A stretch of 64,000 nucleotides of DNA, taken from the IMG/VR virus record IMGVR_UViG_3300027734_000034. The stretch is one strand, 5' to 3'. This stretch comes from a virus. Its lineage: Duplodnaviria; Heunggongvirae; Uroviricota; Caudoviricetes. Both the position numbers and the translations under genes were made by a program. Below are positions 1 to 47,091 of this stretch, piece by piece; position 1 is the stretch's first letter; each line of letters opens with the position of its first letter. The notes under the pieces are model-generated. The model worked only from the letters and a program-made list of their open reading frames with translations. It did no database searches and was not told the DNA's origin.

Positions 1-1599
1 TTTTTCTTCATCCATAGTTTGATTACCACTAGCTTGATCAATTCTGCGTTGTAAGTTAGCTTGCTCATCCGGGGTTGGAGCACCTGGATTACCTCCTGAC
101 ACTCTTAAGTTTGCAGGTTTTGGTTGTTTTGCATTACTTGGTGCTGCTGCTTGTTGACTTTGTTGTGCTAATTTACTAAATTCTTTAGCACCATAACTTA
201 CTGCCGCAGTTCTATTTCTTCTCTTTAAACTATTTAATCCATCTAGTACATCATCTATTGCATCTTTAGCATCATCGACCGTTCTAAAAGATGATGGTCC
301 AGATGATGGTGCGGCTGCTTGCCCTGCACCACCTGATGCTGCACCAGCTGATGGTGCGTATCCTCTACCGCCACTTGCTGCTGACATGCCTGAACCTATT
401 CTACTAGCTGGTACATTACTAGTTGTAGCTGCATTGCTTGTAGTTTGTGGTGCTGATGCTCTGGTTTCAGGATTGACTTCACCAGTGTGACCCACATGTT
501 GCATAGCTTGATTGGCTCTTGATGCGTCATAACCTGTCATTTTACCGCCACCGTATGCATCTTTCATTCCGGCATATGTTCCTTTTACACTACCAATTGC
601 ATCACCTACCCCACCCGCCATACGACCCAATAATCCTTGTTTGGGTTGTGCCGGCTGAACCGGTAACGGCTTTGCAGCAGGAAGTTTAAAGTTAGTAAAT
701 AAATTATTCAATGTCTCCTGTGGTACACCTGCTTTAATCATAATATCTGCAATTTGATCACTATCGGTTGGCTTATTTGCTTTATTCCATGCTTGCAATA
801 ATTTGTCAGCAGTAATCTTTGTTGTTAAGTTTTGCCCTTTGGTTTTAGCCCAATCTAGTATACCTTCATCAACTTGTTTTTTATGCTCATTAACTATTCT
901 ACCAATTAATCTATAAATTTGTGATTCAGATAGTTCAAATGATTCATTTCTCATTTGTAGACCATTGACTTCACCCGGCTTAGCAGGAACTCTTTTTGGT
1001 GCTATCGCTGATAGTGCAGAAGTAGCCGTAGTTGGTGGTTTAGGTTGTACTCTAGGAAATTTACTAAAATCACCTGTATCTGTTCTTGTACCATCTGATG
1101 GACGACCAACAAGTTCTGTACCTTTGTTTAATGCAGCAGTTGCAGCAGCTTGTCTTTGTTGTCTTGCTGCTTGTGCAGCTTGTCCTGCAGGAGTAGTTGG
1201 TTCTTCTGCTGCTGAAACTGATGGATCTGCACTTGTTGATTGTTTTAATCCTGAAGCTGCAACTGGATTAGGAGTGCTAAACATATCTTTAACTTTGCCA
1301 ATTGCTGTTCTATTGTTGCCGCCACCTACTAAGTTAGCAGCACCACCTGCTGATTGAATCTCTTGTGCGCTTTTGAAAATTTGTTGAATTTGTTGAGGGT
1401 CAACTGCAACTCCTTCTTTAATTTTTTTTGCATCATTATCAAATTGTTTTTTAGTAGCAGTATTGATACCTTTAAAACGTTTGTCGCCTTTTTTGAAGTC
1501 ACCTTCACTATCAGCTTTGCTAGCATTAGCCGCAGCAGCAGTTTTGTATTTTGCCAACTTGTCGTTAGATAGTTCTGCTAAAAATTCATTGGTTCTCAT
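1..1599 (-). CDS. Partial (3'-truncated by window edge) large low-complexity late protein, >533 aa, with capsid-targeting-like N-terminus MRTNEFLAE
   Basis: Absent from the ORF track. Translated by hand from ATG at 1599: MRTNEFLAELSNDKLAKYKTAAAANASKADSEGDF...MRNESFELSE...QTMDEEK, with no stop found in the stretches translated down to position 1. Starts 2 nt after the stop of the 701-aa gene. Confidence 0.75.
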   Translation of the reverse strand, partial: MRTNEFLAELSNDKLAKYKTAAAANASKADSEGDFKKGDKRFKGINTATKKQFDNDAKKIKEGVAVDPQQIQQIFKSAQEIQSAGGAANLVGGGNNRTAIGKVKDMFSTPNPVAASGLKQSTSADPSVSAAEEPTTPAGQAAQAARQQRQAAATAALNKGTELVGRPSDGTRTDTGDFSKFPRVQPKPPTTATSALSAIAPKRVPAKPGEVNGLQMRNESFELSESQIYRLIGRIVNEHKKQVDEGILDWAKTKGQNLTTKITADKLLQAWNKANKPTDSDQIADIMIKAGVPQETLNNLFTNFKLPAAKPLPVQPAQPKQGLLGRMAGGVGDAIGSVKGTYAGMKDAYGGGKMTGYDASRANQAMQHVGHTGEVNPETRASAPQTTSNAATTSNVPASRIGSGMSAASGGRGYAPSAGAASGGAGQAAAPSSGPSSFRTVDDAKDAIDDVLDGLNSLKRRNRTAAVSYGAKEFSKLAQQSQQAAAPSNAKQPKPANLRVSGGNPGAPTPDEQANLQRRIDQASGNQTMDEEK

Positions 1600-1601
1600 A
1601 A

Positions 1602-3707
1602 TTATGCTTTCTTATTTTTGATAGATTTTTTGCTTTCGTATGCTATAGAAGCACCGGGTCTAGAAGAAGATGTATATCCTCTATCTTGTAATCTTGCTGG
1701 TTCATCACCAGTAGCTGAATATGGAGTGTTACTTAGATTGTTTGAATCATGTTGTCTCTGATATTCTTGGTTAGATGCATCCATTTCATCTTTACTAACT
1801 AATGGAGGTTGAACATCTGCACGATGTAATTTGAAATTATAAAACTTGATACCTTTTGATTTCATAAAATCTTTAACTGCTTCTGAAGCCTGTCCCGGGG
1901 AGTTATATTCTGTTCCAAGATTGATATCTTTTGTAATTGATTTACCATCTACTTGAAAAGTAATTTGAGCAACAATAGGTTGTATTTCATGTGCATGTGC
2001 TCCTGCCCCGCCCAATGCAGCAGCACCTGCTAGTGCAGCACCTGCTAAATTACTTTTCCAACCTTCTTCTACTTTTTTCTTAGCAGCATCCCATGCAGCA
2101 TCAGTCTTTACATTGTATTCTTTGCCACCAGCGCCAATGTCAGCAACTCTGCTACCAATATCTTTTTTAGTTTTTACAACAGCTTTATTGTGTTTGTTCA
2201 CACTCTTTTGCATTAATTTACCGAAGTCTGGATTGCGTTTAAGGGCCCGTTCATCTTCTGGACTTCTTGAACTTGCTGCTGCTGTTCTCAAATCACCTAA
2301 GTCAAATGCTTCCCTCATTCCTGCTACTTTGCTACCTTGAGTGTTAGCTGCGGTACCGGTACGGCTGGCTTTCATCTTATCTCCACCGCCACCAATGTGT
2401 CTACTACCATAATCGGTCTTGTCTGCCTTGCGTGGCTTTTTATATGGTAATTGTTGAACATTACCACCTTTACTTAAAAATGCTTGTAATGCAGAATCAT
2501 CTTCCGCTACACCTTCAGCACTATCAGTAGCTAATACATCTGCAACTGTGCCAATATGATCGTTTGCTACTGTGATATAACTGTATTCCCATGCATCTAA
2601 TTGATTACCTTGCTTCAACATCTGATGTATCTGCTTGCAATTCTTTGCAATATTACGCAACTCTCCCATAGCCATTTGTGGAATCTGTTCTCCACCATCA
2701 CTATCTTCGTATGCAAGTCCACCGGCGATAACACCAGCACCTTCCGTTACCCCTTGCTCTGCTTGATCCATGTACCATTTAAGAATTTTTAGTAATTCAG
2801 TAAGTGATTCTTGCCCTTCAGGATTACAGTAGTTCTTAGCCATTCTAGCTAAGTCGTACATTGTTCGTAAGTTGCTGGTGCTTACATCACCTTCATTCAT
2901 ACCTATCTTACGCATCACCGCTGGAGAAGCGATTTTTTTTATCGCTTCTTTTTTTCCTACTTGTGCTGCCCTATTGCTTATTTTTTGTGATACATCATCA
3001 TAATGTTTTGCCAATGGATTCATATAGCCGCCACCTAATGCATTATGCACCTCAGGCTTCATTGCTTGATTACTTTTGTTTTTAGCTAATTGTGCGGATC
3101 TTTGTAACAGATCAGAACTGAGTTCATTGATAGCATCACTATCAGGTTGCATCTCTTGACTGCTGATTAGATAATCCATCACATTAACCATCATACCTTT
3201 TGCTGCGCCAATCTTCTCTGATACCCACTCGGGGAATTCAGATTGAACGGATAATCTCTTATCTAAATCACTAGCAGCACGGGCGATAGTGTGTAGACTG
3301 TTCTTTAATGTGTGACCTTCGTGTTCACCATGGTCTAAGTCATGCTTAACAAATCCAGTTCTTCTTAGTCTACCTTGACCCGGGATAACGATTAAGTCTT
3401 GTTCTGCAATTTCCTCTTCGTTGACTTTTGTCATGCTTGCTTTGATTTCAGCTTTTGTTTTTCCATATTTCTTTTGAAATTCAGCAGTAGTTAACTCTGT
3501 TAAATCTATTGATAGTTCTTTAACTTTGCTTTCTGTAATGCTATTAGCGTAAGGCCCTTTCTTTTTAGCCTTCCCTTTCATTACTTGTTGTACAGGTTTC
3601 AGTCCCGGAACATTAACATTTTCACGGGTTTGAGTCATCATAGGCTTTGCTACGGTTGCGACTGACCCTGCTGTGGTTGAATTTTCTACTATTTGCTTAA
3701 ATCTCAT
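1602..3707 (-). CDS. 701-aa modular phage protein, probable virion/internal head protein
   Basis: N-terminus MRFKQIVE; short modules separated by hydrophobic-x-E motifs (ITE, VNE, IAE, INE, MNE, VTE, VAE, MRE, VEE); upstream TAAATA late promoter. Confidence 0.65.
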   Translation of the reverse strand: MRFKQIVENSTTAGSVATVAKPMMTQTRENVNVPGLKPVQQVMKGKAKKKGPYANSITESKVKELSIDLTELTTAEFQKKYGKTKAEIKASMTKVNEEEIAEQDLIVIPGQGRLRRTGFVKHDLDHGEHEGHTLKNSLHTIARAASDLDKRLSVQSEFPEWVSEKIGAAKGMMVNVMDYLISSQEMQPDSDAINELSSDLLQRSAQLAKNKSNQAMKPEVHNALGGGYMNPLAKHYDDVSQKISNRAAQVGKKEAIKKIASPAVMRKIGMNEGDVSTSNLRTMYDLARMAKNYCNPEGQESLTELLKILKWYMDQAEQGVTEGAGVIAGGLAYEDSDGGEQIPQMAMGELRNIAKNCKQIHQMLKQGNQLDAWEYSYITVANDHIGTVADVLATDSAEGVAEDDSALQAFLSKGGNVQQLPYKKPRKADKTDYGSRHIGGGGDKMKASRTGTAANTQGSKVAGMREAFDLGDLRTAAASSRSPEDERALKRNPDFGKLMQKSVNKHNKAVVKTKKDIGSRVADIGAGGKEYNVKTDAAWDAAKKKVEEGWKSNLAGAALAGAAALGGAGAHAHEIQPIVAQITFQVDGKSITKDINLGTEYNSPGQASEAVKDFMKSKGIKFYNFKLHRADVQPPLVSKDEMDASNQEYQRQHDSNNLSNTPYSATGDEPARLQDRGYTSSSRPGASIAYESKKSIKNKKA

Positions 3708-3730
3708 GACGGTTTCCCAAAGTTATAGAG

Positions 3731-3736
3731 TATTTA
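3731..3736 (-). promoter_or_regulatory. T4-type late promoter core TAAATA
   Basis: ttgaTAAATActc upstream of the 701-aa gene; the same hexamer precedes many late-type genes in the window. Confidence 0.6.
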
Positions 3737-3760
3737 TCAAAATACCATAATAAGGAAACT

Positions 3761-6802: not shown

Positions 6803-8521
6803 TTATTTTTCGTCTAGGTAATCAAATTTAGGTTCAACAGGTAATCCGTCGCTACGCTCACGCTTTTTCATTTGTTCGCTGTCTCGTGCGGCTCTTAGTT
6901 TAGCGATAGGTGCCCCATCACCTGCTAAGTCTTTTGCCACATGAGCCATAACATCACTTTCTTTTTCCATTACAGTTGCTATACCAACACCAACGCCTAA
7001 GCTAGCTAGTGTATATTTGAGTGTGTCTACCCAATTCTTGCCGTTCATTCTTGCACCCACTGCAGGGACGATTGAGTTCAATATACCTTGCATCATTAGA
7101 TTAGTTTGATAGGGTGTTAGTTGTATATTATTAGCAAGATTTATTGCGCCACCGCCTAGTAGTGCTGCTATAGCTGTAATGATTCCACCTTGTAAGTATG
7201 GATTGTGTTTACCTTCTTTAAATATATCAATCAACTTTTTGCGAACAACTGGGTCATCAGTCTTTTGTAATAAGTGTCGTGCTTTCTCTACATAGTTTTC
7301 TACTTCTTGTTCTTGTGCTTTTTGCATTACAGGTGTATAGAACTTCATAGTAGCATCAACTATTGGATCAGTTTCTTTATCTTCTTCAATAGGTTCAGTA
7401 GTAGCACCCATCTTCATTTTTTCTTGCACCGGCATTGCCTTCTTAACTTTTTTAGTATTGTACACTCCAAATTCTCCACCACCGTTGGTTTGGCTTGTCC
7501 AACCTGGTAATGACGGTAATACTCTTTTAATCATTCTAGCATACAACGCTCTACGACCGGGTTCTGCGGCTTGGAAATATAACAATGAAGGTTTAAATTT
7601 TTTCACATACTGAACTATAGCATTGACTACAATTCCAAACACTTCTGCGGCTGCCCCTGTACCTTCGATACCCTGTTTAACAACTGGAAATCCGCCTTTC
7701 ATATCCTGTGTAATTTGTTCAAAACTAACAAATTTGCTATTTTCATATACTTCGTCTGAATCAACATAATCATATGGACTCATGTTCTCTGGTCCAATAT
7801 ATGGTTCTAAGAAATCCAATTGATATTCTACTCCATTGCTAGCAGTGAAGTTAAATTTAATCATATCAGGATTACTAGTGTCCCATTGTGAAGTAGCTGT
7901 AGATGCTTTAGTATCAAAAACTTCTTGTAAATTAACATCAACACCCATGCCAGCATCTAATAGCTTAACGACATTTGCTGCTAATGCGGGGTTACTTTGT
8001 GTAGCTGGATACAAACTCATTACCATTGCAGTCTTGCGTTTCTCGTTTAGTTTAGGCCACATTGCACGAATCTCACTTGCACTGGTAATGCCAGGACCAA
8101 ACTCTACTGTTGGTAGATATTCAATGTAAGCATGTTGTCCAAATGGTTTTAAATCTTTGCCTGTGTATGGTTGAAAGTATGCAGGACTTCCATCTTTCTT
8201 TGTGCCACCTGGTTTAGGTTGCTCATTCTTATCTTTTTCACTACGCACAAATATTAATACATCACTGTCAGGATTATACTTGCTTGTTATTTCTTGTGGT
8301 CTGAATGGACTACGAACTTGTACAAATTGTCCTTTCTTTACACCTGCTACTTTAGCAAGTTTTTCTTTGATTGCAAAAGGAAAAGGTCTTTCACTAGTAT
8401 CGTCTGATGCCGCAACATATACATCAGCACCCGGAAAGGTTTGTAATGCTGATTGATATAGTGAGGCATGACCCGCATGAAACGGGTGAAAGCCTCCGGG
8501 CATTACGACTATTGTACTCAT
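6803..8521 (-). CDS. HIGH-motif cytidylyltransferase-like domain fused to further phage modules, 572 aa
   Basis: N-terminal VVMPGGFHPFHAGHA (HIGH-type) and SASEIR (KMSKS-like). The central module (EVFDTK...GTGAAAEVFGIVVNAI...RRALYARMIKR) resembles the N-terminal module of the kinase at 22739-23836. Confidence 0.7.
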   Translation of the reverse strand: MSTIVVMPGGFHPFHAGHASLYQSALQTFPGADVYVAASDDTSERPFPFAIKEKLAKVAGVKKGQFVQVRSPFRPQEITSKYNPDSDVLIFVRSEKDKNEQPKPGGTKKDGSPAYFQPYTGKDLKPFGQHAYIEYLPTVEFGPGITSASEIRAMWPKLNEKRKTAMVMSLYPATQSNPALAANVVKLLDAGMGVDVNLQEVFDTKASTATSQWDTSNPDMIKFNFTASNGVEYQLDFLEPYIGPENMSPYDYVDSDEVYENSKFVSFEQITQDMKGGFPVVKQGIEGTGAAAEVFGIVVNAIVQYVKKFKPSLLYFQAAEPGRRALYARMIKRVLPSLPGWTSQTNGGGEFGVYNTKKVKKAMPVQEKMKMGATTEPIEEDKETDPIVDATMKFYTPVMQKAQEQEVENYVEKARHLLQKTDDPVVRKKLIDIFKEGKHNPYLQGGIITAIAALLGGGAINLANNIQLTPYQTNLMMQGILNSIVPAVGARMNGKNWVDTLKYTLASLGVGVGIATVMEKESDVMAHVAKDLAGDGAPIAKLRAARDSEQMKKRERSDGLPVEPKFDYLDEK

Positions 8522-8961
8522 TGTTGATTGCCTGTTATTGCCTGTAATAAGGCTCTGGCTACTACACGGTCTTTTTCTTGTTCTTCATCTGATAGTTGAG
8601 CATATGGAATGTTCATCAACTTTTCGCGCTGCTGAAGTTTTGCTTCTAATTTACCGGCAGCTTTTAGTTTCTCTGTGTCATCAAATTGTTCTGGGTGTGC
8701 TACAAACGCTTTAGCAGTTACATTCCATCCTTGATGTATCGCATCACTAATCTTTTCAATATCTTTTTCACCTGCTGTAATTGCTTTCAAAGCAAATTCA
8801 GCCGACTTCATATTAGCTTTCCATCCAAATGTATTGCCAGGACTACTGCGACCATAGTGGTATGCATCATCCAATGCTTTGTCACTTATTTGTGCTAGTT
8901 GACCAATGTCCATGCTTTCGTTTAGCATGTCAATATATTTTCTAAAAAGTTCTGTACTCAT
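8518..8961 (-). CDS. Standalone RyR (ryanodine receptor repeat) domain protein
   Basis: AIHQGW...LMNIPYAQLSDEEQEKDRVVARAL matches the RyR pattern (HxxW...PYxxLxxxEKxKDR); N-terminus ends in LNE. Confidence 0.65.
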   Translation of the reverse strand: MSTELFRKYIDMLNESMDIGQLAQISDKALDDAYHYGRSSPGNTFGWKANMKSAEFALKAITAGEKDIEKISDAIHQGWNVTAKAFVAHPEQFDDTEKLKAAGKLEAKLQQREKLMNIPYAQLSDEEQEKDRVVARALLQAITGNQQ

Positions 8962-9525: not shown

Positions 9526-10254
9526 TCAGACAGGTACGGGTCGCTTTTCTAATTTATAGCGTTTTCCAAGCATATGTCCATACATTAATATCAAATAGCT
9601 TAGTGTACTTTCATTGTCATAGTCAATAGAATGATTTCCGCTAGTATAGCGATATTGCCAACTATTAATTGAAGCAATTGGGCGTCTAATATAGTCATTT
9701 AACCATATTTTCAATGCATTACTTGGAACCAATTCTTTACTTTTCTTGATGGTATCGTGCAAATCTTTAATAAAATCTCTTTCTTCAATATACTTAGATT
9801 TTAAATAAATTCTATACTTGTGCTTTGGCTCATTGACATAATACTTTGTACCAGCAAACTGCTCCAATTGCACTTCTGTGATTTTTACGGTAACTAGTCC
9901 AAGATCCTTCAATGTAAGCAACAAATCTAAATTGTTGCTGTACACTGACATAGTATCCATCTCAAGTCTGAAAGTTACTAATCCGGGATTTTTGTTACTG
10001 TTACGCCAATCAATGAAGTTATTAAGTTCATTGATTTTCTCCATCGTTACTGCTTTTCTATCTGCTCGTACCTTGCGATATCCGGTCTCATTCAATCTCC
10101 TAATCAACTCACCCGGAGATTTAACATAATTAGTGAATGCTAATCCATCGATAGTAAATTTAGCCCGATATCTATAGTTGTTGTAATAATTAGTTTCCTT
10201 ATATTCATAAAAATCAATATTAGGAATGTTTTCAACTGACCTCAATAATCCCAT
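9526..10254 (-). CDS. Hypothetical protein, 242 aa
   Basis: Intact ORF overlapping the end of clpA. Confidence 0.65.
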   Translation of the reverse strand: MGLLRSVENIPNIDFYEYKETNYYNNYRYRAKFTIDGLAFTNYVKSPGELIRRLNETGYRKVRADRKAVTMEKINELNNFIDWRNSNKNPGLVTFRLEMDTMSVYSNNLDLLLTLKDLGLVTVKITEVQLEQFAGTKYYVNEPKHKYRIYLKSKYIEERDFIKDLHDTIKKSKELVPSNALKIWLNDYIRRPIASINSWQYRYTSGNHSIDYDNESTLSYLILMYGHMLGKRYKLEKRPVPV

Positions 10255-12493
10255 CTTCGTTCACCTTGGCTGTTAGTTTATGTGTTACTGCAAAATCAAT
10301 TGCACCTTCGTTCATCACTACATTGATTGTAGCAGATTTAATACGTTCAAACAAGACTTTTTTACTTAGAGGTACCCGAATCAATTCATCAATCTTGCGA
10401 CTTAATGGTCGTGCGCCCATCTTCTTATCGTATCCTTGCTCTGCCAAATACTCAACTACTGGTTCACTTAGATTCAATACAATATCATGCTTGTCAACCA
10501 AACTCTTTTTCAAGTCATCGGTAAACTTGATAACAATCTTCTTAATCGCAAGTGTATCCAATTTGTTAAACTTGCAAATCAAGTCAACACGATTTCTAAA
10601 CTCGGGCTTGAAGAATTCTTTCAATGCTTTGTCATCTTCACCGGTCTTCTCTTGTGTGCCGAAGCCGATGTTGTTGCGTTCGCTATCACTACTACCTAAA
10701 TTACTGGTCATGATAATGATACTGTTCTTACAGTTAACTTGCTTACCATTACTTCCAGTGATATGACCTTCGTCCAACATCTGCAAGAAGATGTTAAAGA
10801 TATCTGGATGTGCTTTCTCAACTTCATCAAACAACATGATCGAATGTGGGTTCTTGCTCAAGTCATTGATCAATCGTCCACCTGACACTTGACTATCACC
10901 AAACCCAACATAACCCGGGGGAGGTCCAATCAAACTACTTACGCTATGTTTTTCTGAGTATTCGCTCATGTCATACTTAAGCAACGGCATGTCTAAATTC
11001 TTGCTTAGTAGTTTAGCAAGTTCAGTCTTACCGGTACCAGTTGGTCCCAAGAACAAGAAACTACCTGTTGGCTTAGTGTCATTACCAATACCAGCAAAGT
11101 TAACATAGACTCGCTCAAGTACCTGTTGTACAGTTTCATCTTGTCCGTATAGTTTGTCTTTGATGTTTGATTCTAAATTTTGAATCAATTCAAAGTTATC
11201 ACCCTTCATTTTATCAGCAGGTACTCCAGTGAATCGTTCAACTTGGTCAAACACAAGTTCTTTAGTAATGATTGCACCTTTGTTTTCTGCTACACGCTGT
11301 TTAGCACAAGCAGCATCAAGCAAATCAATAGATTTATCTGGGTTCTTACGGTCATGAATATAGCGGTCAGCACTTTCAACTGCTGCTTTGATTGCCTCAT
11401 CAGTAATTTCAACATTGTGAAAATCATTTAGTCTAAGACTCAATCCATTAAGAATGCGAATTGTTGTATCGTGGTTAGGTTCATCAACTGAGATACGATA
11501 GAACCTACGCATCAACGCACGGTCCTTCTCAAAGCTATCATAGTATTCTTCCCATGTTGTACTAGCAATAACTTTAAGAGTACCTTTAGTAATTGCAGGT
11601 TTAATCATGTTACTGAAATCAACCGACCCATTGTTAGCACCACCTGCGCCTTGCATAGTATGTGCCTCGTCAATAAAAAGAATAGTCTTTTTCTTTGTGT
11701 TCAATGCCTCAAGTACTTGCTTAACCTTTTCCTCAAAGTCACCGCGATACTTACTACCTGCAAGTAGTGACCCAATCTCTAAACTGTATAGTTGATGGTC
11801 TTGCAAGAATTCAGGCACTTCTTTATTAATCATCATCTGTGCTAGACCTTCAGCAATTGCTGTTTTACCAACACCAGGATCACCGACCATCAATACATTA
11901 CTCTTAAACCGTTTAGCAAGTACGTTAATGATATCATCAAGTTCTTTGCTACGACCAATCAATGGCTCAAGTTTACCTTGTGCTGCTAGTTGTGTCAGGT
12001 TGATTGTGTATTCTTCTAGTATCTCATCAGCTTGGTTCTCTGTTAGATTTCCAGTCTCACCATGCTTATAATGTTTTTGCCAATGTGATACAAATTCGTT
12101 TTTGTTAATTCCGTATTTCAACAAGAAATAATGTGCATGGCTATTGCCTTCTGACGCAATGCTTAAGTATAAGTCAACAGTAGTAACCTGTCTACGACCA
12201 CTAAACAATACTTGTGTGACGCAACGATTCATAACACGCTCTAAACTATTTGTTTTGCGTGGAACTACATCGTCATCTTTGCTTACGATAGCATGTAAAC
12301 TATCTAAGTATGCATTAATCTCTTGATCCATTGTTTCAACGTCTGCACCAAAACTATGCAAACATTTTTTGAATGAATTATGATTTATCAGTCCAAGTAG
12401 TAAATGTTCCACGGTTACATATTGATGTTTTCTTTCTTTAGCATAATGAATCGCTTGTTCAATAATACTATCTATTTCGGGTGAATGGTTCAT
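10232..12493 (-). CDS. clpA: ATP-dependent Clp protease ATP-binding subunit ClpA
   Basis: Clp N-domain ([13 protein letters not shown]); Walker A GDPGVGKT and GPTGTGKT; [28 protein letters not shown]; IGFG ClpP-docking loop; no ClpB coiled-coil M domain. Confidence 0.92.
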
Positions 12494-13293
12494 TTTTGAT
12501 TCCTTTGTTGTTTGTATGCTGCAATAGTATTTACTAATTGTTCGTCTATGATATCAGGTATGAATGGCTTAAACAATATAATTTGGTCTCCGTAAACTGT
12601 TGAGTTAGGTATAGGCATCCCATGCCCTGCTAATTTTAATTGCATATATGGTTGTGTTTTTGGTTTAACTGTAACCTCTAATGTCTTTCCAGACAATGTT
12701 GTGAATTCAAAAGTTGTTCCAACAATTAAATCTAATACTGATATCGGGTGATTACATGATAAATCATTACCTTGTCTATCATATTTAAGATGGTTCTCCA
12801 CTCTGAAATCTACCATTAAACTAGCACCATCTATGACATTATCAATACGCATCTGATTGCCGTTGTTAATTCCTTTAGGTACTTGGATAGTAATAGCATG
12901 AGTGTTAGTGGGTGTTTGTAATTTTAATATTTGCTCTCCACCATAATATGCTTGTTCAAGTGTGATTCCTACTGTGGTTCTAAATGTTTGTGGTTGTTTG
13001 CGCTGTTGGCTAAACGGGTCAAACGGGTTGCCTCCGCCAAACATCTGACTAAAGATATGTTCAAACCCTGGGGGAACACCAGCTTGCTGATGAAATCCTT
13101 GGGGAGCAGGATTGTCGTATTGTTGTCGTTTGTTTGTATCGCTTAGTGTATCATAAGCGGCTTGAATATCTTGGAATTTAGCCTTGTCTCCGCCCTTGTC
13201 AGGATGATGCTGACTGGCTAGTTTCCTATATGCTTTTTTAATTTCGTCAGGTGATGCGTTTTTAGCTACACCTAATGTAGTATAATGATCCAT
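12490..13293 (-). CDS. dnaJ: DnaJ/CbpA-type co-chaperone (J domain + G/F region + C-terminal domain, no Zn finger)
   Basis: MDHYTTLGV...[18 protein letters not shown] (HPD motif). Confidence 0.9.
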
Positions 13294-13934: not shown

Positions 13935-14483
13935 TTATAATCCTGCCATTGCTATGTATGCTTGTATCTCACTATCTGGTTTACCATATAATTTTACAGT
14001 TTCTAGTCCGGCGCGTCTACGCATCTCATTTAAATCTTCTTGGTTTTCTTCTTCAACACGATATTCGTGTGGACTAATAGTAATTACTTGCTTCAATACT
14101 TCCGGGTCAGCATCGTATTCTTCTTCATCAATAGAAATAGTCCAATCATTTATTGTTAACTCGGTAAGTGTTTCTAAATCATCAATCAATTCTACAATGC
14201 GTTCTGGAACTTTTGTTCTACGCTTCATCTCAACAAATACTAGATACTTACCAGGACTTAATTCACCTTCGCTTAAGCTAGAATCTAGTATCCAATCATA
14301 TCCACGCTCAAACCAGTCAACCAAATCATTTCCTGCTGCTTCGCTTTTAACAACAAATGCCAATGTAACAATGTCACTGTCTTTGCCCATCTTAGCAGCA
14401 TACTCATCTACAGAAACGGTAGGTTCTATTTGATCTACCATATCCAAATAATCTAAGCCTTCATTAATGATTCTTCTTGTCAT
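13935..14483 (-). CDS. Hypothetical acidic phage protein
   Basis: Intact ORF in a late operon; N-terminus MTRRIINE. Confidence 0.65.
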   Translation of the reverse strand: MTRRIINEGLDYLDMVDQIEPTVSVDEYAAKMGKDSDIVTLAFVVKSEAAGNDLVDWFERGYDWILDSSLSEGELSPGKYLVFVEMKRRTKVPERIVELIDDLETLTELTINDWTISIDEEEYDADPEVLKQVITISPHEYRVEEENQEDLNEMRRRAGLETVKLYGKPDSEIQAYIAMAGL

Positions 14484-22738: not shown

Positions 22739-23836
22739 TTATGATGTTCCTTCGCTAAACCACGGATCAATGATAACCGGTTGTCCGTTACTTCGTTGCA
22801 TGACATTTGCCGTATGCAAATCCCATCCAAATTTATTGATATTTCCTGTACTATATAATAACTGCATCACAGTATATAGCTGTTTATACATACTGTAAGT
22901 TTTTTTACTTGCAGGATTTTCTAGTATACTTTGCCATGTTCTAGCAAAAGTACCAGAATAGTTTGGACTAAAAAAATACCACGGGTGTCCATTTGTTAAT
23001 TCGCTTTCCACAGTTGACCATGGTTTATTTCCACTAACATAATCACTTAATAACCAAACCATACCTTGTAAGAAACCACCTTTTTCTATAGGGGATAATC
23101 TCTCCATCTCAATCTGAGTGTAGTCTTTGCCATTGATATCGATGGTGTTCACTTCATTGAATCTAGGAACGCATGGTAAATCTTGATGACTCATTGAAAA
23201 CTCATAAAACTTACGAAATACTTGTTCAGCTTTGCTACCCGCATCCTCTGGCATCAATATCTTGATCACATGACTATCATCTTTGGCAAAAACAGTAGCA
23301 TCAGCACCGCTGCCAACATGATGATATCCAGCCGCTCTTAGTTGTTTCCAAATCTCATTGCTATTCTTAGTAGCTACTTCAGCTTCATCCAAATTATCTT
23401 TGACAATCTTGAAGTAGTCATCATACTCACCTGAATCAATAGGTGCCGCATGGTAACCGGGTACTTTGATTCTATTCAACATACGCTGGTATAATTTAGT
23501 TCTATTGTCATCTGCTTTGTGTGAAGTGAATGTAAGTTGATCAGGATGATAGCTAGAAATCAAATCTTTGATTGACTCAATGACAAATGAGAATACTTGT
23601 AATTCATTACCAGAACCAGTCTTTCTAAAAGTTGTACCAGTTCCGTCCTTTTCATATTCAGTAAAGTCTATTTCCCATACTGATTTACCTTCATCATCGT
23701 CATACTGTGAAGCATTAAAAACAATAACACGACCACCTATCGTAGCCTTAGTGGTGTATAAGTCTGGAGTTGCTCTAACTACTTCACTAGAGACATTGCT
23801 AGTAAATACTTCGGTTATAAATTCTGTGGCTCTCAT
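22739..23836 (-). CDS. Protein-kinase-like (PKL/APH fold) domain fused to an N-terminal phage module
   Basis: [11 protein letters not shown] (Gly loop), VIKIL (Lys), WDLHTANVM (catalytic loop), IIDP; N-terminus MRATEFITE. Confidence 0.7.
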
Positions 23837-24387
23837 AGACTCTTACCCCAACGGGTATTAATCACATTCCAGTTTATGATTTTCCACTGTTCTTTGATGT
23901 ACTTTTTCTTATCACTGCCGTAATCTAATATGAAAGCATGTTCCCACCAGTCAATCAATAACAATATGTCATTGCGTACTTGATGATTTACTATCGTTTT
24001 AATCTTGCCGTCTGTAGCTAAGTATATCCAACCACTACCCTGTATCTTCATGGCCTCAATCTCAAACTCAGACTTCATGTTATCATAATCACCGTAATGT
24101 TTATTAACGAATCCCATCATAGGGCCGTTGGGCTTGTTATTGTTTCTCACTTCACGGAACTGCGGGAATAATGTATTATGCAGGAAAGCGCCTGCATAGT
24201 TGAAATCTCTATCACCCTCTTTATTATTGTATCGTTCAGCATACCCGTGGGCTAGTTTCCCATAGTGCAAATCCAATGTGTCTTTGGATAGTACAGGACT
24301 GACTTCAGCCGGAGTGAAGTTTAAGGGTATGATTTCTATGTCTTGAGGCTTACTCTTTTCCTCAAGCAATGTAATAATGTCACGCAT
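23833..24387 (-). CDS. sod: Fe/Mn superoxide dismutase
   Basis: Metal ligands present: LHYGKLAHGY, FLHNTLF, GSGW, DWWEHAF; extra N-terminal MRDIITLLEE. Confidence 0.88.
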   Translation of the reverse strand: MRDIITLLEEKSKPQDIEIIPLNFTPAEVSPVLSKDTLDLHYGKLAHGYAERYNNKEGDRDFNYAGAFLHNTLFPQFREVRNNNKPNGPMMGFVNKHYGDYDNMKSEFEIEAMKIQGSGWIYLATDGKIKTIVNHQVRNDILLLIDWWEHAFILDYGSDKKKYIKEQWKIINWNVINTRWGKSL

Positions 24388-24408
24388 AACATGTATTTAT
24401 GCGTATTG

Positions 24409-24624
24409 TTACCTGCGCCGAGTAATGCGTCCTTTAGATAGGTCGTAGGGTGAGAATTCTACTTCCACCGTGTCTCCGAGCAATATTTTAATGTCGTTCT
24501 TACGCATACGACCACTGATGTAACCAGTAATCACATTACTTGGATTCATCTGTACTTTGAACATAGCATTGGGTAATACATCGATCACCTTACCGTCCAT
24601 CTTGATTCCCTCTTCTTTTGCCAT
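24409..24624 (-). CDS. infA: Translation initiation factor IF-1
   Basis: MAKEEGIKMDGKVIDVLPNAMFKV...ISGRMRKNDIKILLGDTVEVEFSPYDLSKGRITRR; SD aggag. Confidence 0.95.
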   Translation of the reverse strand: MAKEEGIKMDGKVIDVLPNAMFKVQMNPSNVITGYISGRMRKNDIKILLGDTVEVEFSPYDLSKGRITRRR

Positions 24625-25716: not shown

Positions 25717-26289
25717 TCAAGTTTTATGGATGAATGGTCCGTAAATCTTTTCAAGTTCTTGGATAGTTTGAGCAACAGTACTATCTTCATGCTTTACTGC
25801 AATGCCACCTGCACTACTCCATGCATCTAAATATTTGCCATAATCATCTACTAGTACATTTGGGATGCCACCATTTAATGCATGTTTGTACTTTGCACCA
25901 GTGAATATTGCACTACCACTAGTTCCCGGGTTATATTGGTCTAGCCAATCTTTTTTAGCTTCTATGCTAGCCTTCGCATACGGACCGCGCAACGGAGCAG
26001 ACAATACGGTGAACGGGATTTTATTATCATTTAGCCACATTACAATACGCATACCACCTGTTAGTGGCTTTAAGTCTCTAAAAAACTGATAAACTTGTTC
26101 CGGGCTACTTGTTGCTAATGCTTGTATATCTTCTTCTCGTCTTGGAATCTCTTTGTAACTAGAAACCCCATGCTTTCCAGCCCAGGCGCCAAAGAAATCT
26201 GCTTGAACTCCATCCATATCTAGGTATAGATGTGGCATCTTTGCTTCTGGTTCAGACTCAATTTCTTCTAATAATTCTCGTATACGCAT
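25717..26289 (-). CDS. HAD-family 5'(3')-deoxyribonucleotidase (NT5C-like)
   Basis: LYLDMDGVQADF (motif I), VLSAP, KKDWL, LVDDY; start MRIRELLEE 5 nt after TAAATA (26295-26300). Confidence 0.8.
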   Translation of the reverse strand: MRIRELLEEIESEPEAKMPHLYLDMDGVQADFFGAWAGKHGVSSYKEIPRREEDIQALATSSPEQVYQFFRDLKPLTGGMRIVMWLNDNKIPFTVLSAPLRGPYAKASIEAKKDWLDQYNPGTSGSAIFTGAKYKHALNGGIPNVLVDDYGKYLDAWSSAGGIAVKHEDSTVAQTIQELEKIYGPFIHKT

Positions 26290-26374
26290 CATTATATTTA
26301 TCTGTACAGTATAGGAACGATTTTATAGCTAAATACATAGTACAACAATAATAACAATAATAAGGAGTACAAAA

Positions 26375-26542
26375 ATGGTAACAAAAAAAGTTACTACTAG
26401 GCGAAAAGTAGTCGAGCCGCCTCCCCCTCCATCAGTAAAGAGTTTCCCGACCGCTGCCTTAGGTGTAGGTATGGTTATCCTAACTAATTACCAAGCAGAA
26501 GTAAAGCAAGCACTAGGATTAATAATGAAAGCATTAACATGA
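26375..26542 (+). CDS. Hypothetical 55-aa protein (MVTKKVTTRRKVVEPPPPPSVKSFPTAALGVGMVIL...)
   Basis: SD taaggag; late promoter 26330-26335; ATGA overlap with the next gene. Confidence 0.7.
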   Translation: MVTKKVTTRRKVVEPPPPPSVKSFPTAALGVGMVILTNYQAEVKQALGLIMKALT

Positions 26543-27282
26543 AAATATTAGATAAAATTTTAGAATTTAAGAGAACTCCATATGTTATTGCAGGGGTTAT
26601 ATTTGTAAGCAGTTTGGCTGTTCTTAGTTGTTTCAAAAGTGCAGAAACGCAACTAACCACACTAAATCATGCTGCTTCTCTCACTCGCACTATGGCTAAA
26701 TCGTCAGATGATTTGACTAATTATGCTAGATTTTTCGTGACGACCAAGAATGAACAATGGAGAACAGAATTCAATAATGTGCTTAAAATCCGAAACGGAG
26801 AAGTAGCGGATGATAAGGGTGTGACAAAATCATTCAAAGACAGAGTAAAAGAAGTACCGTTTTTACAGACCGAATTAGATCAGTTATTAAAAGCAGAACA
26901 ACTAAGCAACAATCTCGCTAAACTAGAAGTTGAAGCGTTCGCATGGATAGATAAGGGTAAGCCTGAATTGAATTTTGACATAATGATGCACCATTACACA
27001 GAAGCACAGATGTTGATGTTTGGAGATGATTACAAAAAATACAAGAAAGAGATCGTTGTCACTACGGATGAATTCTATGTGATGGTGGTAAGCAGATTAC
27101 AATCAGAATATATGTTCTATATGACAGCAGCATGGACGATGATCATTGTCATAAATCTAAGTTTGATTTTATTAGTGATGGTTATCAAGCATAAAGAAGT
27201 AGTTGATAAAAAACCGGTTAGAAAAGTTATTAAAAAGATACCGGTAAAAAAGCCAGCAGTTAAAAAAATTATTAAGGAGTAA
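26539..27282 (+). CDS. Two-TM membrane protein with a chemoreceptor/sensor-kinase-like periplasmic domain and no signalling domain
   Basis: TM1 YVIAGVIFVSSLAVL; helical domain with SSDDLTNYARFFVTT...IRNGE...SNNLAKLE; TM2 AAWTMIIVINLSLILLVMVI; short Lys-rich tail. Confidence 0.55.
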   Translation: MKILDKILEFKRTPYVIAGVIFVSSLAVLSCFKSAETQLTTLNHAASLTRTMAKSSDDLTNYARFFVTTKNEQWRTEFNNVLKIRNGEVADDKGVTKSFKDRVKEVPFLQTELDQLLKAEQLSNNLAKLEVEAFAWIDKGKPELNFDIMMHHYTEAQMLMFGDDYKKYKKEIVVTTDEFYVMVVSRLQSEYMFYMTAAWTMIIVINLSLILLVMVIKHKEVVDKKPVRKVIKKIPVKKPAVKKIIKE

Positions 27283-43408: not shown

Positions 43409-43681
43409 TTAAACTAGGTCCACTTGAATCTGTTTACCGCGGATAGTAGTGCCAAGTCCAGTTGGGATAGCTTTGCGGTGTGCTTTAGCCAAGTATCGCT
43501 CAGCCGCTAGCATTTCCATCGCATCCCAGCACAATACGCGGGCGTTAGTGGTAGCAAACATTTCGGTCATTTGCTGGACTGTCATGTACATGCCAATGTC
43601 GTTCTCGGAGCCATCGCCCTTGAAAATCACACGGAATTTTTGAGAATTTTTCAAACCTTCAATGATAGTCTTTGTACGCAT
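43409..43681 (-). CDS. Hypothetical early protein
   Basis: Flanked by promoter cassettes. Confidence 0.65.
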   Translation of the reverse strand: MRTKTIIEGLKNSQKFRVIFKGDGSENDIGMYMTVQQMTEMFATTNARVLCWDAMEMLAAERYLAKAHRKAIPTGLGTTIRGKQIQVDLV

Positions 43682-43687
43682 TTTCTT

Positions 43688-43745
43688 GTCCTTTAATTAA
43701 CTGTCTAAGTATGTATTATATACCCAAAACCATTTGTTGTCAACC
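43688..43745 (-). repeat. Repeated early promoter cassette, copy 3
   Basis: ggTTGACA-acaaatggttttgggta-TATAAT-acatacttagacagttaattaaaggac. Confidence 0.9.
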
Positions 43746-43746
43746 T

Positions 43747-43842
43747 TTAGGGTTTCATCATAAACGCAAAGTAATAGAAAAACGGGCCAAACATCACCGA
43801 AGTGATGATGGCCGCTTGAAGTAGTTCAATTAAGTATTTCAT
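43747..43842 (-). CDS. 31-aa hydrophobic peptide (MKYLIELLQAAIITSVMFGPFFYYFAFMMKP), probably leaderless
   Basis: Fills the gap between two promoter cassettes exactly; ATG 6 nt after the -10 box. Confidence 0.6.
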   Translation of the reverse strand: MKYLIELLQAAIITSVMFGPFFYYFAFMMKP

Positions 43843-43848
43843 GTTGTA

Positions 43849-43877
43849 AGTATAGCACAAAACCCATTTATTGTCAA
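43849..43877 (-). promoter_or_regulatory. Repeated early promoter cassette, copy 4
   Basis: cggTTGACA-ataaatgggttttgtgc-TATACT. Confidence 0.85.
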
Positions 43878-44917
43878 CCGTAAGTTATATAGTCTCTTAT
43901 ATTGATTTTTCTTAAGGAATCTTGTTTTTTGACAAAATTATCAAAATCAGTTTGATTGTCATTCCCACTAGCAATTAAGTTAGAGTAATGATTCAAAGTT
44001 GAATTTTCTTCTTTGGTAAATTTTTCTCTAGCTGCCAAAGTAAATGAATTTACACTAGTTATCAAAAGTTCTTTTTTGTCAGCTATGTTATTGAAACTAT
44101 GACCTATATTATGTTCTTTCACAAAGTTTATAATATTATCAAAATCATAAATATTCAATGCAGTAAGTGTGGTATATAAATTGATACTAACTGCTTCATA
44201 ATTGCTTGCAAATTTTTTATATTTTTCTAATACATCACAAAAAATATTCCACTTAGTGGGCCATCTCATATATTCTTGAACTTTTCCTACTCCATCTAGA
44301 CTTATAGTAATTTGTATGGAGATACCTGTTTCAGCGATAGGAATTAACTCATCCATAAATGAGGTACAATTAGTATTAACTCTAATTGATTTTATATTTG
44401 GTGGCAAACTTTTTAATACTTCTTTTATATTTTTGCTATTGCTTGGTTCGCCACCAGTTAAGTCTAGTTGAGTTATTCTATCAATGGGCAATACTTTACT
44501 ATTATAATAAGGAGTAGCATCTCTTATTTCATAATTAGAAGATATTAAAGATGCTATCTTAGTACTAACATGCGGACTACAAAATTGACATGCAGTATTA
44601 CAAATATTATCTAACATTAAATCTACTGTTAGATAATCAATATCAGATTGCATTTTCATATCTTCGTTATAATACATCCTATCACTTTTTTGATTAATTT
44701 CTTCTTTTTCTTGGCACCGAACGCATTCTTTGGGAAATTTATTTTCTTTAAAAGTATTTTTTATATTTTTCATCCAGTTACTGTTTATCATTTCGCTATA
44801 ACTAGAAAAAAAAGGTATATCGTTCATAACGCAACACCCACTGATCACTGCATTTGATCCAAACTCAACATAAGGTGGTGTAAGTTTAGCATAGTGATCA
44901 AGTCTAGCACAGTACAT
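43874..44917 (-). CDS. Radical SAM protein with extra Cys clusters (Twitch/SPASM-like)
   Basis: LMLDNICNTACQFCSP (CxxxCxxC), LTGGEP, ISLDG; N-terminal GCC...C..C; coupled to clpP by TAATG. Confidence 0.85.
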   Translation of the reverse strand: MYCARLDHYAKLTPPYVEFGSNAVISGCCVMNDIPFFSSYSEMINSNWMKNIKNTFKENKFPKECVRCQEKEEINQKSDRMYYNEDMKMQSDIDYLTVDLMLDNICNTACQFCSPHVSTKIASLISSNYEIRDATPYYNSKVLPIDRITQLDLTGGEPSNSKNIKEVLKSLPPNIKSIRVNTNCTSFMDELIPIAETGISIQITISLDGVGKVQEYMRWPTKWNIFCDVLEKYKKFASNYEAVSINLYTTLTALNIYDFDNIINFVKEHNIGHSFNNIADKKELLITSVNSFTLAAREKFTKEENSTLNHYSNLIASGNDNQTDFDNFVKKQDSLRKINIRDYITYG

Positions 44918-45504
44918 TACGGACGCTTTTTCAGTACAGAATCAGCTAATCCGTATGCTACTGCTTCGGTAGCACTCATAAAAAAGTCTCGTTCCATATC
45001 TTTAGCTAGTTCCTCGTATGTCTTACCAACACTATTGTGGTCAACATAGATTTGTGTAAGACATTTTTTCATAGTTATAATTTCTCTGACTTGAATTTCC
45101 ATGTCGGTAGCTTGACCTCGTGCGCCACCACTGGGCTGATGAATCATATGCCTTGCGTTGGGCAACATATAACGCTTACCTTTTGCTCCCGCTTGTGCAA
45201 GCAAACTACCCATACTACATGCTTGACCCATGACGATGGTCATAACATCAGGCTTAATGAATTGCATACAATCGTAGATTGCCATACCAGCAGTTACACT
45301 ACCACCTGGGCTATTGATGTAAACACTAATATCCTTCTCGCCTTCGCTTTCTAAGTAAAGCAATTGGGCAACGACTAGATTTGCCATTTGATCGTGTACT
45401 TCGCCCTCAAGCAAAATAACACGGTCACGCAACATGCGGCTGTATATATCATAACTACGCTCACCTTTGCTTGTTTGTTCTAAAACCATTGGGACTAAAC
45501 TCAT
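44917..45504 (-). CDS. clpP: ATP-dependent Clp protease proteolytic subunit ClpP
   Basis: [17 protein letters not shown] (Ser), MIHQPSGG (His), DMERDFFM (Asp); start MSLVPMV at 45504 with SD aaggaag. Confidence 0.95.
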
Positions 45505-45523
45505 ATACTTCCTTAAAATTAAA

Positions 45524-45552
45524 AGTATAACAGAAAGATTAGCTAGTTGCAA
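45524..45552 (-). promoter_or_regulatory. sigma70 promoter of clpP
   Basis: TTGCAA-17 nt-TATACT. Confidence 0.65.
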
Positions 45553-45561
45553 CTATATTGG

Positions 45562-47091
45562 TTACCGTTTGCGTTTTTCTCTTGTACCTACTTCTTTGGG
45601 TTTTGATACTGGGTTGACGATATTTTTAGATGCAGTTGCTAATTGATCAATGCCTGCACTTTTTTCTCGTTTGGCTCTAGGTGTAGTTGTTGTCTGTTCA
45701 TCATCTTTTGGCGCACCAGAACCTTTGTCAATTTTAAATGTGTAATTACCTTTTATACCAGTACTATAATATGTTTTACCTGCTGATAGATAAACGCCTT
45801 TGATGCTTGTACCTGGATAAATTGTATTGAATTCTTGCAGTGTCCATTTACCTTTGCCTTCACTTGCTTTGGTATACATCTGTACTAATGCACCATTGTT
45901 TAATATATCAGCAGCAGCTTTACTAAAATTTGTTTTTTCATTTACTTCTTGTGCTGCTTTATGCGCTACTGCTGCCATCAAGTGATAATACAAATTAACA
46001 TTATCTGGGTCATCTGTGTTACGTTCTTCTGCTAACTTTGTTAAATTATCACTAAGTCCAAGTTGTCCAAGATTATCTAAACTAACAGGACCTATTTTCT
46101 TAAATGCTCTGATCATTTCAACATCGTCTGGACTAATGATACCATAACGTACACCCAGCATCAATGGAGAACCTGCTTGTCCTGCATCTTGTATCTCACG
46201 TAATATATCAACTACTTCTTTATGTTTGTTTAAGAATTTTCCACCATCCGGGGTTTCTGCTATCTTATCAATCTGATCAATCAAATTACTTGCGCTAGCT
46301 GTAGCACCTTTGCCACCTTTTGTACTAACTAATACGCTACCACCTTGACTATTAGTTATAACGCTATCACTAAGTCCTGCTGTTTTACTATCATCAAAAC
46401 TAATCAATGTCTTTTGAAATGTTCCACCTAAAAACTTATTTGCAGCTTCACCGGCATTACCGGTGTATTGACCTTTTTGCAATGCTATTGGTTGTAGTAT
46501 CTCACAGAAGTAATCACGAAAAGCCGAAAAGCTAACTCCCTCAGGTGCTTCAAATGATATTGGTAATGGTTGTCCTATTGCGATATTATGTGCTAGTGCA
46601 TACAATGGACTATCTGTTCCTAAACTGCTAGCAAGTTGATTCATTATCTTTGAGATAGTTAAATCAAGTTTGTCAGTTAATAAATCTTGTGGACTTAAGC
46701 CAGCATCTGCTTTTGCTGCTGCTTTACCGCCAAACTTATATGTTGAACCATCTACTGTGAATGTGTTTGATACTTTGTTATCAGTAAGTGAGGGCTTAAC
46801 TTCTTGTAGATATTGTCCAATAACAAAAGTACCAAATGAGATTATTGCAAACCCACCTGTACGTCCAGAACGACTATTTTGCCATTGAATATCTGGAACT
46901 TGTTGTTCAATTTGAATTAATGCTTGATCTAATTCTTCGGGTGTAAATTTGCCACCACCTTCCGGGAAGAATTTAATATCGTTAAATATTGCTTCATCAC
47001 CGTTTTCATTTTTGAAAACGTCGCCTGGTTTGCGACCTGCTAATCCTGTACTTTCGTTCAGTTGGTCTAATAATGTTATAAATTCACGCAT
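45562..47091 (-). CDS. Hypothetical late protein, 509 aa
   Basis: N-terminus MREFITLLDQLNE; TAAATA at 47099-47104; possible PD-(D/E)xK-like DSV...VSTKGG segment (weak). Confidence 0.65.
   Translation of the reverse strand: MREFITLLDQLNESTGLAGRKPGDVFKNENGDEAIFNDIKFFPEGGGKFTPEELDQALIQIEQQVPDIQWQNSRSGRTGGFAIISFGTFVIGQYLQEVKPSLTDNKVSNTFTVDGSTYKFGGKAAAKADAGLSPQDLLTDKLDLTISKIMNQLASSLGTDSPLYALAHNIAIGQPLPISFEAPEGVSFSAFRDYFCEILQPIALQKGQYTGNAGEAANKFLGGTFQKTLISFDDSKTAGLSDSVITNSQGGSVLVSTKGGKGATASASNLIDQIDKIAETPDGGKFLNKHKEVVDILREIQDAGQAGSPLMLGVRYGIISPDDVEMIRAFKKIGPVSLDNLGQLGLSDNLTKLAEERNTDDPDNVNLYYHLMAAVAHKAAQEVNEKTNFSKAAADILNNGALVQMYTKASEGKGKWTLQEFNTIYPGTSIKGVYLSAGKTYYSTGIKGNYTFKIDKGSGAPKDDEQTTTTPRAKREKSAGIDQLATASKNIVNPVSKPKEVGTREKRKR

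Follow-up and report, generated by a model that had tools for sequence, protein, structure and literature searches.

A shared N-terminal leader, probably a T4-type capsid-targeting propeptide, on enzymes and other late proteins of an uncultured Rak2/PA5oct-type jumbo phage

The 64,000-nucleotide stretch of DNA analysed here (the window) belongs to IMG/VR virus record IMGVR_UViG_3300027734_000034 (Caudoviricetes) and represents the minus strand of positions 141487–205486 on one contig of 230,993 bp. Several of its genes, encoding a superoxide dismutase (SOD), an NT5C-type deoxynucleotidase, a kinase-like protein and further unrelated proteins, begin with a short N-terminal leader that opens with Met-Arg and ends in hydrophobic-x-Glu, and this leader is probably the lineage's own version of the T4-type capsid-targeting propeptide. 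It is non-random, under selection at the protein level, separable from the folds that it precedes, located on late genes and co-occurring with a head-assembly machinery of the T4 type. An initial annotation of the window had proposed such a role for the N-termini of at least eight late proteins. Capsid targeting is the best-supported explanation, given the T4-type machinery, the E-F-[IL]-x-E core, the position of the leaders as add-ons and their conservation among orthologues, although all of this is evidence by comparison, and the set of proteins concerned has become smaller.

The shared leader and its statistics

All eight N-termini quoted in the initial annotation translate exactly from minus-strand ATG codons, at positions 1599, 3707, 8961, 14483, 23836, 24387, 26289 and 47091, with a second ATG at 26292 beside the one at 26289 in the nucleotidase gene. 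Genes and motifs of the window named below lie on the minus strand unless a plus sign is given. The description of these genes as unrelated holds, an all-versus-all blastp comparison having revealed no paralogy beyond the tag with the sole exception of an internal domain common to the kinase-like protein and a 572-aa protein. The definition of the tag as a short N-terminus ending in hydrophobic-x-Glu (h-x-E, in which h is a hydrophobic residue) had to be abandoned, however: it does not discriminate and fails on the initial annotation's own terms, as [LIVMF]-x-E is present within the first 16 residues of 53 of 213 N-termini (25%) and in 835 of 4270 internal windows (20%). The longer core E-h-h-x-E occurs at 5/213 N-termini compared with 9/4270 internal windows.

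In an unbiased all-versus-all comparison of the genome's N-termini, anchored at Met1, the top pairs outside paralogues and signal peptides were 47091/24387, 23836 with a protein encoded outside the window, and 23836/1599. This outside protein (g221, genome 228732–230414), which starts with the leader MRFTEFISE, is the sixth strong member of the set. For a position matrix, orthologue leaders were gathered from IMG/VR and the protein database, leaving out each protein's own family, and all N-termini of the genome were scored with it. The start at 26289 scores 10.9, followed by 1599 (9.6), 23836 (9.4), 47091 (6.6) and 24387 (5.6), with the outside protein within 9.4–10.9; a score of 5.6 is attained by 0.08% of 1283 internal-Met controls, and one of 6.6 by none of them. 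The starts at 3707, 8961 and 14483 do not score. In this narrower form the leader is real and far exceeds what chance would give at 1599, 23836, 24387, 26289 and 47091, five of the eight starts. The start at 3707 is counted as a probable member because of the leaders of its orthologues, despite the lacking matrix score, while 8961 and 14483 are indistinguishable from chance; these two are without the shared leader, yet have a conserved h-x-E junction. Two further N-termini of the window are borderline and may be due to chance: MKILDKILEF on a probable membrane protein (26539–27282, plus strand; matrix 7.6) and MRTKTIIEG on a 90-aa protein in a region of small genes (43409–43681; matrix 5.3).

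The leader exists in two sub-forms. The first is M-R-x-x-E-F-[IL]-x-E, with which MRIRELLEE is grouped, and the second is M-R-[DE]-h-h-x-h-h-[ED], at times extended to a later h-x-E, as in MRDIITLLEE and MREFITLLDQLNE. Some leader genes use AGA for Arg2 and some CGT, with differences at the other codons as well, which indicates selection on the peptide rather than conservation of a DNA cassette. Among hundreds of metagenomic orthologues Arg2 and the Glu of the final L-x-E are fixed and the remainder drifts by conservative replacement, and some orthologues are devoid of the leader.

The claim that the genes are expressed late is supported by their promoters. The motif [GC]ATAAATA is a T4 late-promoter variant that stands in front of genes for tail fibres, baseplate and core in this phage and is found 1–23 nt upstream of the starts at 47091, 26292, 24387 and 3707: as GATAAATA at 47099–47106 (7 nt upstream of 47091), at 26295–26302 (abutting the nucleotidase start) and at 3731–3738 (23 nt upstream of 3707), and as CATAAATA at 24394–24401 (6 nt upstream of the SOD start). 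There is an overlap between the start of the kinase-like gene and the stop codon of the SOD gene, and the gene for a 670-aa protein follows that for a 701-aa protein by 2 nt. Genes with a strong leader lie in chains behind the motif in 5/6 cases compared with 74/217 other genes (p=0.02).

Leader-bearing proteins and their orthologues

The clearest enzyme of the set is an Fe/Mn superoxide dismutase of 184 aa (23833–24387) with the leader MRDIITLLE(E) at 24358–24387. Its C-terminal domain matches Pfam Sod_Fe_C (PF02777, E 3.7e-22), the N-terminal SOD domain stays under the Pfam cut-off, and alignment to the cellular SOD 1ues shows that all metal ligands (His, His, Asp, His) are present, so that the enzyme is apparently active. 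Residue 18 aligns with residue 4 of the cellular enzyme; the comparison with cellular SOD, which the initial annotation had suggested, hence confirms that the tag is an add-on of about 14 residues in front of the fold. All of 120 SOD homologues (79–94% identity) keep MR[DE]-h-h-x-h-h-E, with L-L-E at its end, and the next residue varies between E, D, A, G and S, placing the fixed Glu at residue 9. The SOD of Vibrio phage 2.275.O (L323:425-958) is without the leader, and the SOD of Pseudomonas phage PA5oct (EST35_0261) carries a different leader which also ends in h-x-E (MNDSIKKYISIAE).

Directly upstream of the SOD gene lies a 71-aa gene (24409–24624), the orthologue of which in a relative is annotated with an eIF-1a/IF-1 fold (PF01176); its product would be a phage protein similar to translation initiation factor 1. 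In Vibrio phage 2.275.O a KTSC-domain protein two genes upstream of the SOD starts with MFTIRHFIDVMNE, resembling the ...IDMLNE N-terminus of the protein starting at 8961. In a relative on a 322-kb contig (L025:10552-12583), whose SOD is 80% identical, different genes follow the SOD, and these are again headed by leaders: MRAKEFSLPE on a protein of 173 aa and MRAFEFLKE on a protein of 444 aa. Judged from these gene orders, the region after the SOD looks like a hypervariable cargo locus.

An NT5C-type 5'-deoxynucleotidase of 190/191 aa (25717–26292; phrog_2643) starts with (M)MRIRELLEE at approximately 26263–26292. The Pfam NT5C profile matches residues 21–159 with 30.4 bits (cut-off 24.8), the HAD motif DMDGV is present, and a PDB sequence search with this protein yielded no match. 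Also here the tag had been described as an addition in front of the fold, and this is borne out by the start of the profile at residue 21 and by an internal Met just before the HAD motif; the extension comprises 17 residues up to this Met, which precedes PHLYLDMDGV. Among orthologues 0–22 residues precede (M)PHLYLDMDGV, mostly in the form M[RK]-h-x-[ED]-h-h-x-E. As sequence assignments, the identities of SOD and NT5C are secure.

The kinase-like protein (365 aa, 22739–23836), whose start overlaps the SOD stop, has the leader MRATEFITE at 23810–23836. It matches phrog_15752 (E 3.4e-10), which speaks for the kinase named in the initial annotation, but the Pfam match (PF18762, 17.9 bits) is under the cut-off of 27, a PDB sequence search gave no match, and the call was overstated; we have moderate confidence in a kinase related to T7 gp0.7 or to the polyvalent-protein kinases. 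Its orthologues start with MRA[TSN]EFITE, MKANEFVIE or MRYNEITKE and then diverge, and in some relatives the kinase domain follows wholly different N-terminal regions. Residues 55–123 resemble the PA5oct virion protein EST35_0349 (141 aa, starting with MHLFELFDQIE). A domain of about 80 residues, weakly similar to DUF6934, is shared by the kinase-like protein (residues 41–133), the 572-aa cytidylyltransferase-like protein at 6803–8521 (residues 246–354) and EST35_0349.

The gene at 45562–47091 encodes a conserved, virus-only protein of 509 aa with the leader MREFITLLDQLNE at 47053–47091, and the predicted mature part begins with STGLAGRK. Across 32 homologues, the most distant at 41% identity, R2 and E13 never change and L11 hardly does; residues 3–10 drift, STGLAGRK is conserved, and a few relatives begin at or near STGLAG, with the leader varied or absent. 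In a confident AlphaFold model (32 homologues, mean predicted local distance difference test score 77.8) residues 1–14 form a low-confidence helix outside the fold. A Foldseek search of this model against the PDB gave no match at E<=0.001, and VIA-align reported only matches of Z ~4, many of them PD-(D/E)xK nucleases, over residues 170–460; in the Atlas feature search restriction endonucleases are the nearest named clusters (0.85–0.87). The hints to PD-(D/E)xK are faint though mutually consistent, and the modelled protein is possibly a packaged nuclease-like protein.

Two large modular proteins complete the set. The 670-aa protein, the 5' part of which occupies 1–1599 and which continues past the window, carries the leader MRTNEFLAE (1573–1599). 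The module that comes first, LS[TN]xKLxxYKTAA, occurs both directly after leaders and within polyproteins of relatives, each time with h-x-E in front of it (QINE/LST, VNE/LST, ILAE/LST, with a slash at the junction); internal module boundaries of polyproteins carry QGVAE/G and QINE/LST. The 701-aa protein (1602–3707) has the probable leader MRFKQIVE (3684–3707), and its orthologues show M[RK][FI]x[QD]I-h-x-E (MRFKQIIE, MKIKDICE, MKISDIFE, MKINQIIVE) in front of a conserved start rich in Ser and Thr.

The two remaining starts are of a different kind. The 147-aa protein at 8518–8961 had been called a RyR domain protein, which goes beyond the evidence, as the Pfam match reaches 15 bits, under the cut-off of 27.4, and covers residues 101–143 only. 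Its 15 N-terminal residues, MSTELFRKYIDMLNE, form a weak candidate for a leader. Close orthologues keep h-h-N-E, and phages farther off have this domain behind MKITQILSE...QGVAEG, MRITEIITE or MKIAEILIE; the domain seems to be a cargo module despite its atypical leader here. The 182-aa core protein at 13935–14483, for which the N-terminus MTRRIINE had been quoted, matches phrog_13138 ('virion structural protein', E 4.5e-22). In its family of 80 orthologues 3–9 variable residues are followed by h-x-E and then by GLDY, and the protein has the second-highest h-x-E density in the genome. From this pattern it may be a protease substrate outside the set with the shared leader.

T4-type head assembly and the PA5oct virion proteome

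The head genes of the phage lie outside the window and comprise a major capsid protein of the Gp23 family (PF07068, E 1e-97), a prohead protease (Peptidase_S77, PF03420, 99.4 bits) and a portal protein (Portal_T4, PF07230). The S77 protease belongs to the T4 gp21 family, and keeps the catalytic His and Ser in two motifs, HP and GVSSRG, that can be aligned with their T4 gp21 equivalents. The capsid protein has 63–66% identity with its counterparts in Rak2-like jumbo phages, namely Pseudomonas PA5oct (65%), Escherichia 121Q/PBECO4 and Vibrio 2.275.O. At the DNA level a megablast search of the phage collection with 4 kb of the window returned no match, so that relatives could be reached through protein comparison only, and close homologues are present on hundreds of metagenomic contigs in IMG/VR, apparently from freshwater. 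Capsid identity, the T4-type head genes and the freshwater metagenomic homologues together identify the source, by sequence comparison, as an uncultured jumbo phage of the Rak2/PA5oct type with a head-assembly system of the T4 type.

The terminal h-x-E of the leaders recurs at the capsid-protein junction, in a scaffold-position protein and at the polyprotein module boundaries, that is, at other predicted sites of the prohead protease. The predicted propeptide junction of the capsid protein, LLAE/SSAG, is invariant in 75 relatives and aligns with the T4 gp23 site FLTE/AEIGG. Between the protease and capsid genes, which is the position of gp22 in T4, a protein of 366 aa is encoded (genome 68300–69400) that has the highest h-x-E density in the genome, with 26 sites compared with 12.6 expected from composition. 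Its PA5oct homologue is among the few head-module proteins undetected in virions, which is what degradation and expulsion of a scaffold would lead one to expect, and the 366-aa protein is probably a gp22-like scaffold which would be chopped by the protease. The gene adjoining that of the portal (genome 70993–71220) encodes a basic protein of 75 aa that starts with M[KR]L-x-E-M-F in 67 relatives. As its PA5oct homologue (MKINDIITE) belongs to the virion proteins, it is likely a small component of the head interior or core, carrying the leader in its shortest form.

These observations are compatible with the following sequence of events. The genes would be transcribed late from T4-like late promoters, and the amphipathic leader would carry each protein into the scaffolding core during prohead formation, presumably by binding to the core. 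The gp21-type S77 protease would then cut after the Glu of the terminal h-x-E, and the mature proteins would be kept inside the DNA-filled head. Likely cargo would be the Fe/Mn SOD, the NT5C nucleotidase, the kinase-like protein, the 509-aa protein and the two large modular proteins. By analogy with the internal proteins (IPs) and Alt of T4, the cargo may in addition be delivered into the host, an outcome that we consider conceivable without expecting it. In one sub-form the leader ends in ...h-h-D-x-L-N-E and is similar to the first residues of the two proteins in scaffold position (MDNKKFEQLIDLIINE and MFDAIKPLLESGLINE), a similarity which hints that leaders may mimic a helix by which the scaffold associates with itself. 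Complex prediction for the first 45 residues of the 509-aa protein with the two scaffold-position proteins gave a score of 0.00, under the mark, which speaks neither for nor against binding.

In T4 the capsid-targeting sequence (CTS) sits on IPI, IPII, IPIII and Alt and is removed by gp21 (Mullaney and Black, 1996; reviewed in PMC9026906). The sequence MKTYQEFIAE, which had been cited for comparison, was verified in the T4 record at the starts of ipII and ipIII, which encode internal proteins of 100 aa and 193 aa, and a third small T4 open reading frame (ORF) begins with MKTFKEFIKE. The first ten residues of IPIII suffice for head incorporation; targeting depends most on residues 4 and 7 of the tag, processing on residues 8 and 10, and with Asp at position 10 targeting is intact and cutting is blocked (PMC9026906). 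The authors of this review consider that the tag may be a general loading route for varied proteins in T4-like phages (PMC9026906). The leader described here shares with the T4 CTS the length of approximately ten residues, the occurrence on unrelated late proteins, the core E-F-[IL]-x-E (e.g., MRFTEFISE) with the (L/I)-x-E end, and equivalents of T4 F7, I8 and E10. Moreover, in both cases head genes of the gp21/gp23/gp20 type are present, the leader is separable from the cargo, and the cargo genes vary among relatives. It differs in that it begins with M-R instead of M-K, is one residue shorter, has a second, longer sub-form, MR[DE]-h-h-x-h-h-[ED]..h-x-E, and is known from genes alone, in a jumbo phage of the Rak2/PA5oct type and not of the Straboviridae. 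Another parallel is given by the phiKZ-like phages SPN3US and 201phi2-1, jumbo phages which likewise load many head proteins via N-terminal propeptides removed by a protease, although these propeptides are mostly >100 residues long and have no common short tag (PMC5694885). The head lineage of phiKZ-like phages is distinct from the T4/Rak2 type. The cleavage motif of their prohead protease differs too.

Among cultured relatives, the group of PA5oct is the closest for which a virion proteome exists, and PA5oct is the only relative with one; 93 virion-associated proteins were reported (Lood et al., 2020, PMC7318152), which we took as the 93 coding sequences flagged 'ESI-MS/MS' (electrospray ionization tandem mass spectrometry) in the GenBank record. 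The matrix and its thresholds were fixed beforehand from the freshwater relatives and were afterward applied to PA5oct. Leader-like N-termini are present in 6/93 detected and 4/331 undetected proteins (odds ratio 5.6, p=0.009), and at a stricter threshold in 5 detected and 3 undetected proteins (p=0.015). The detected starts include MKINDIITE (EST35_0150), MKIKDILVE (EST35_0238), MKILEFNLTE (EST35_0381), MRLNEINLIE (EST35_0380) and MRLDEIQSK, and three of the undetected matches are ORFs of 57–64 residues. The SOD homologue EST35_0261 (...YISIAE) and EST35_0349 were both detected in virions by ESI-MS/MS. A strict regular expression, also fixed before, matched 2/93 and 3/331 proteins, too few to decide; a second one (5/93 compared with 2/331) was written after the data had been seen and is not relied on. 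Searches by blastp found no PA5oct homologues of the 509-aa, 701-aa, 670-aa and nucleotidase proteins. A word search of the PA5oct paper turned up neither SOD nor kinase nor internal proteins, and a single, unrelated sentence with 'cleav' (PMC7318152); as far as this search shows, the paper does not describe a shared leader or processing of head proteins.

Several points weigh against capsid targeting. The packaged proteins of T4 are mostly small and basic, in contrast to which folded multimeric enzymes such as SOD would be unusual cargo. The matrix of the lineage misses T4's own CTS, as the register is off by one residue, and is unusable across lineages; given this and the shorter leader, the tags may be homologous or may have converged on a common cleavage site. 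The significant enrichment in PA5oct rests on ten proteins, and the loose h-x-E motif is not enriched in its virion list (28/93 compared with 78/331, p=0.13). This list also holds ribonucleotide reductase, thymidylate synthase, FtsH and a ligase, so that detection is not specific and is no proof of specific packaging.

Alternative explanations and significance

Among the alternatives, the best placed is that the leader is nothing but a propeptide removed by the protease, or a feature of the start of leaderless late mRNAs, without any targeting, and that the proteins act late in the cytoplasm. The activities of SOD, nucleotidase and kinase are plausible there, and as the late promoter of several genes lies 1–7 nt from the ATG, the first codons could be selected for initiation. 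Other genes with an abutting promoter begin in an unrelated manner, however (MKHETAD, MPSYVGF, MEYSTI), and Arg2 is encoded by both AGA and CGT, which shows that the amino acid is selected. A prohead protease can moreover cut only what the prohead contains, and in T4 the segment alone suffices for targeting (PMC9026906). We regard this explanation as unlikely.

A second alternative, which we rate lower still and consider improbable, is that the leader constitutes an N-degron or adaptor signal for the Clp machinery of the phage and times removal or unfolding of the proteins. The window does encode such a machinery: ClpP (44917–45552; Pfam CLP_protease, E 2.3e-78), which lies directly downstream of the gene for the 509-aa protein and is not part of the tag system, ClpX (49345–50553), a ClpA/B-type ATPase (10232–12493) and DnaJ (12490–13293), all of them phage-encoded. 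An N-terminus composed of Met, a basic and a hydrophobic residue furthermore resembles one class of the N-terminal signals of ClpX. Against a degron, the fixed Arg2 together with the terminal L-x-E in front of a conserved mature N-terminus is the signature of a cleavage site, the same h-x-E is present at internal module boundaries and at the propeptide junction of the capsid protein, and leader-bearing proteins of PA5oct are detected in virions. PA5oct encodes the same set of ClpP, ClpX, ClpA/B-type ATPase and DnaJ, plus ClpS.

Chance or composition is a very improbable source of the leader as a whole. Codons rich in A and T bias the residues near starts toward K, R, E, I and F, and the loose motif is found inside proteins nearly as often as at N-termini. 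For the weak candidates (8961, 14483 and the borderline proteins at 43409–43681 and 26539–27282), which score nil or marginally in the matrix, chance is a reasonable explanation; yet neither the six strong members nor the conservation among orthologues can be accounted for in this way. That the leader serves for recognition by a modifying enzyme, e.g., one of the at least 15 radical-SAM/SPASM paralogues of the genome, of which one (43874–44917) lies two genes downstream of the 509-aa gene, is the least credible of all, since PA5oct, with its leader-like virion proteins, and T4 are without homologues of these radical-SAM proteins, the leader genes examined in relatives do not adjoin such enzymes, and the leader is without the pattern of Cys, Ser and Thr typical of such substrates.

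The principle of a short capsid-targeting leader which is removed by a protease is textbook knowledge for T4, and its generality among T4-like phages has been suggested in reviews (PMC9026906). In our literature searches we found no description of a capsid-targeting sequence in jumbo phages or in phages of the Rak2/PA5oct type, nor of SOD as virion cargo. What is added here is the enzyme cargo, the evidence from orthologues for the junction, and the test in the proteome of PA5oct. In a more far-reaching and tentative form, for which we would claim somewhat less than for delivery into the host, the large freshwater clade of uncultured Rak2-type jumbo phages might pre-load folded enzymes (SOD, deoxynucleotidase, kinase and a possible PD-(D/E)xK-like nuclease) by a common grammar of M-R leader and h-x-E, with the cargo freely swapped. 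A packaged SOD would then be a new virion cargo that shields the particle from oxidative damage or blunts the oxidative response of the host on entry.

If capsid targeting by the leader is true, the T4 principle would extend to the phages of the Rak2/PA5oct type, the cargo would include enzymes not known as virion cargo (SOD, NT5C and the kinase-like protein), and short tags would be at hand for loading proteins into large capsids. PA5oct is in culture and its proteome is published, which makes the idea directly testable. Should the leader function as it does in T4, the internal and possibly injected set of proteins of abundant, uncultured freshwater jumbo phages would become readable from their sequences.

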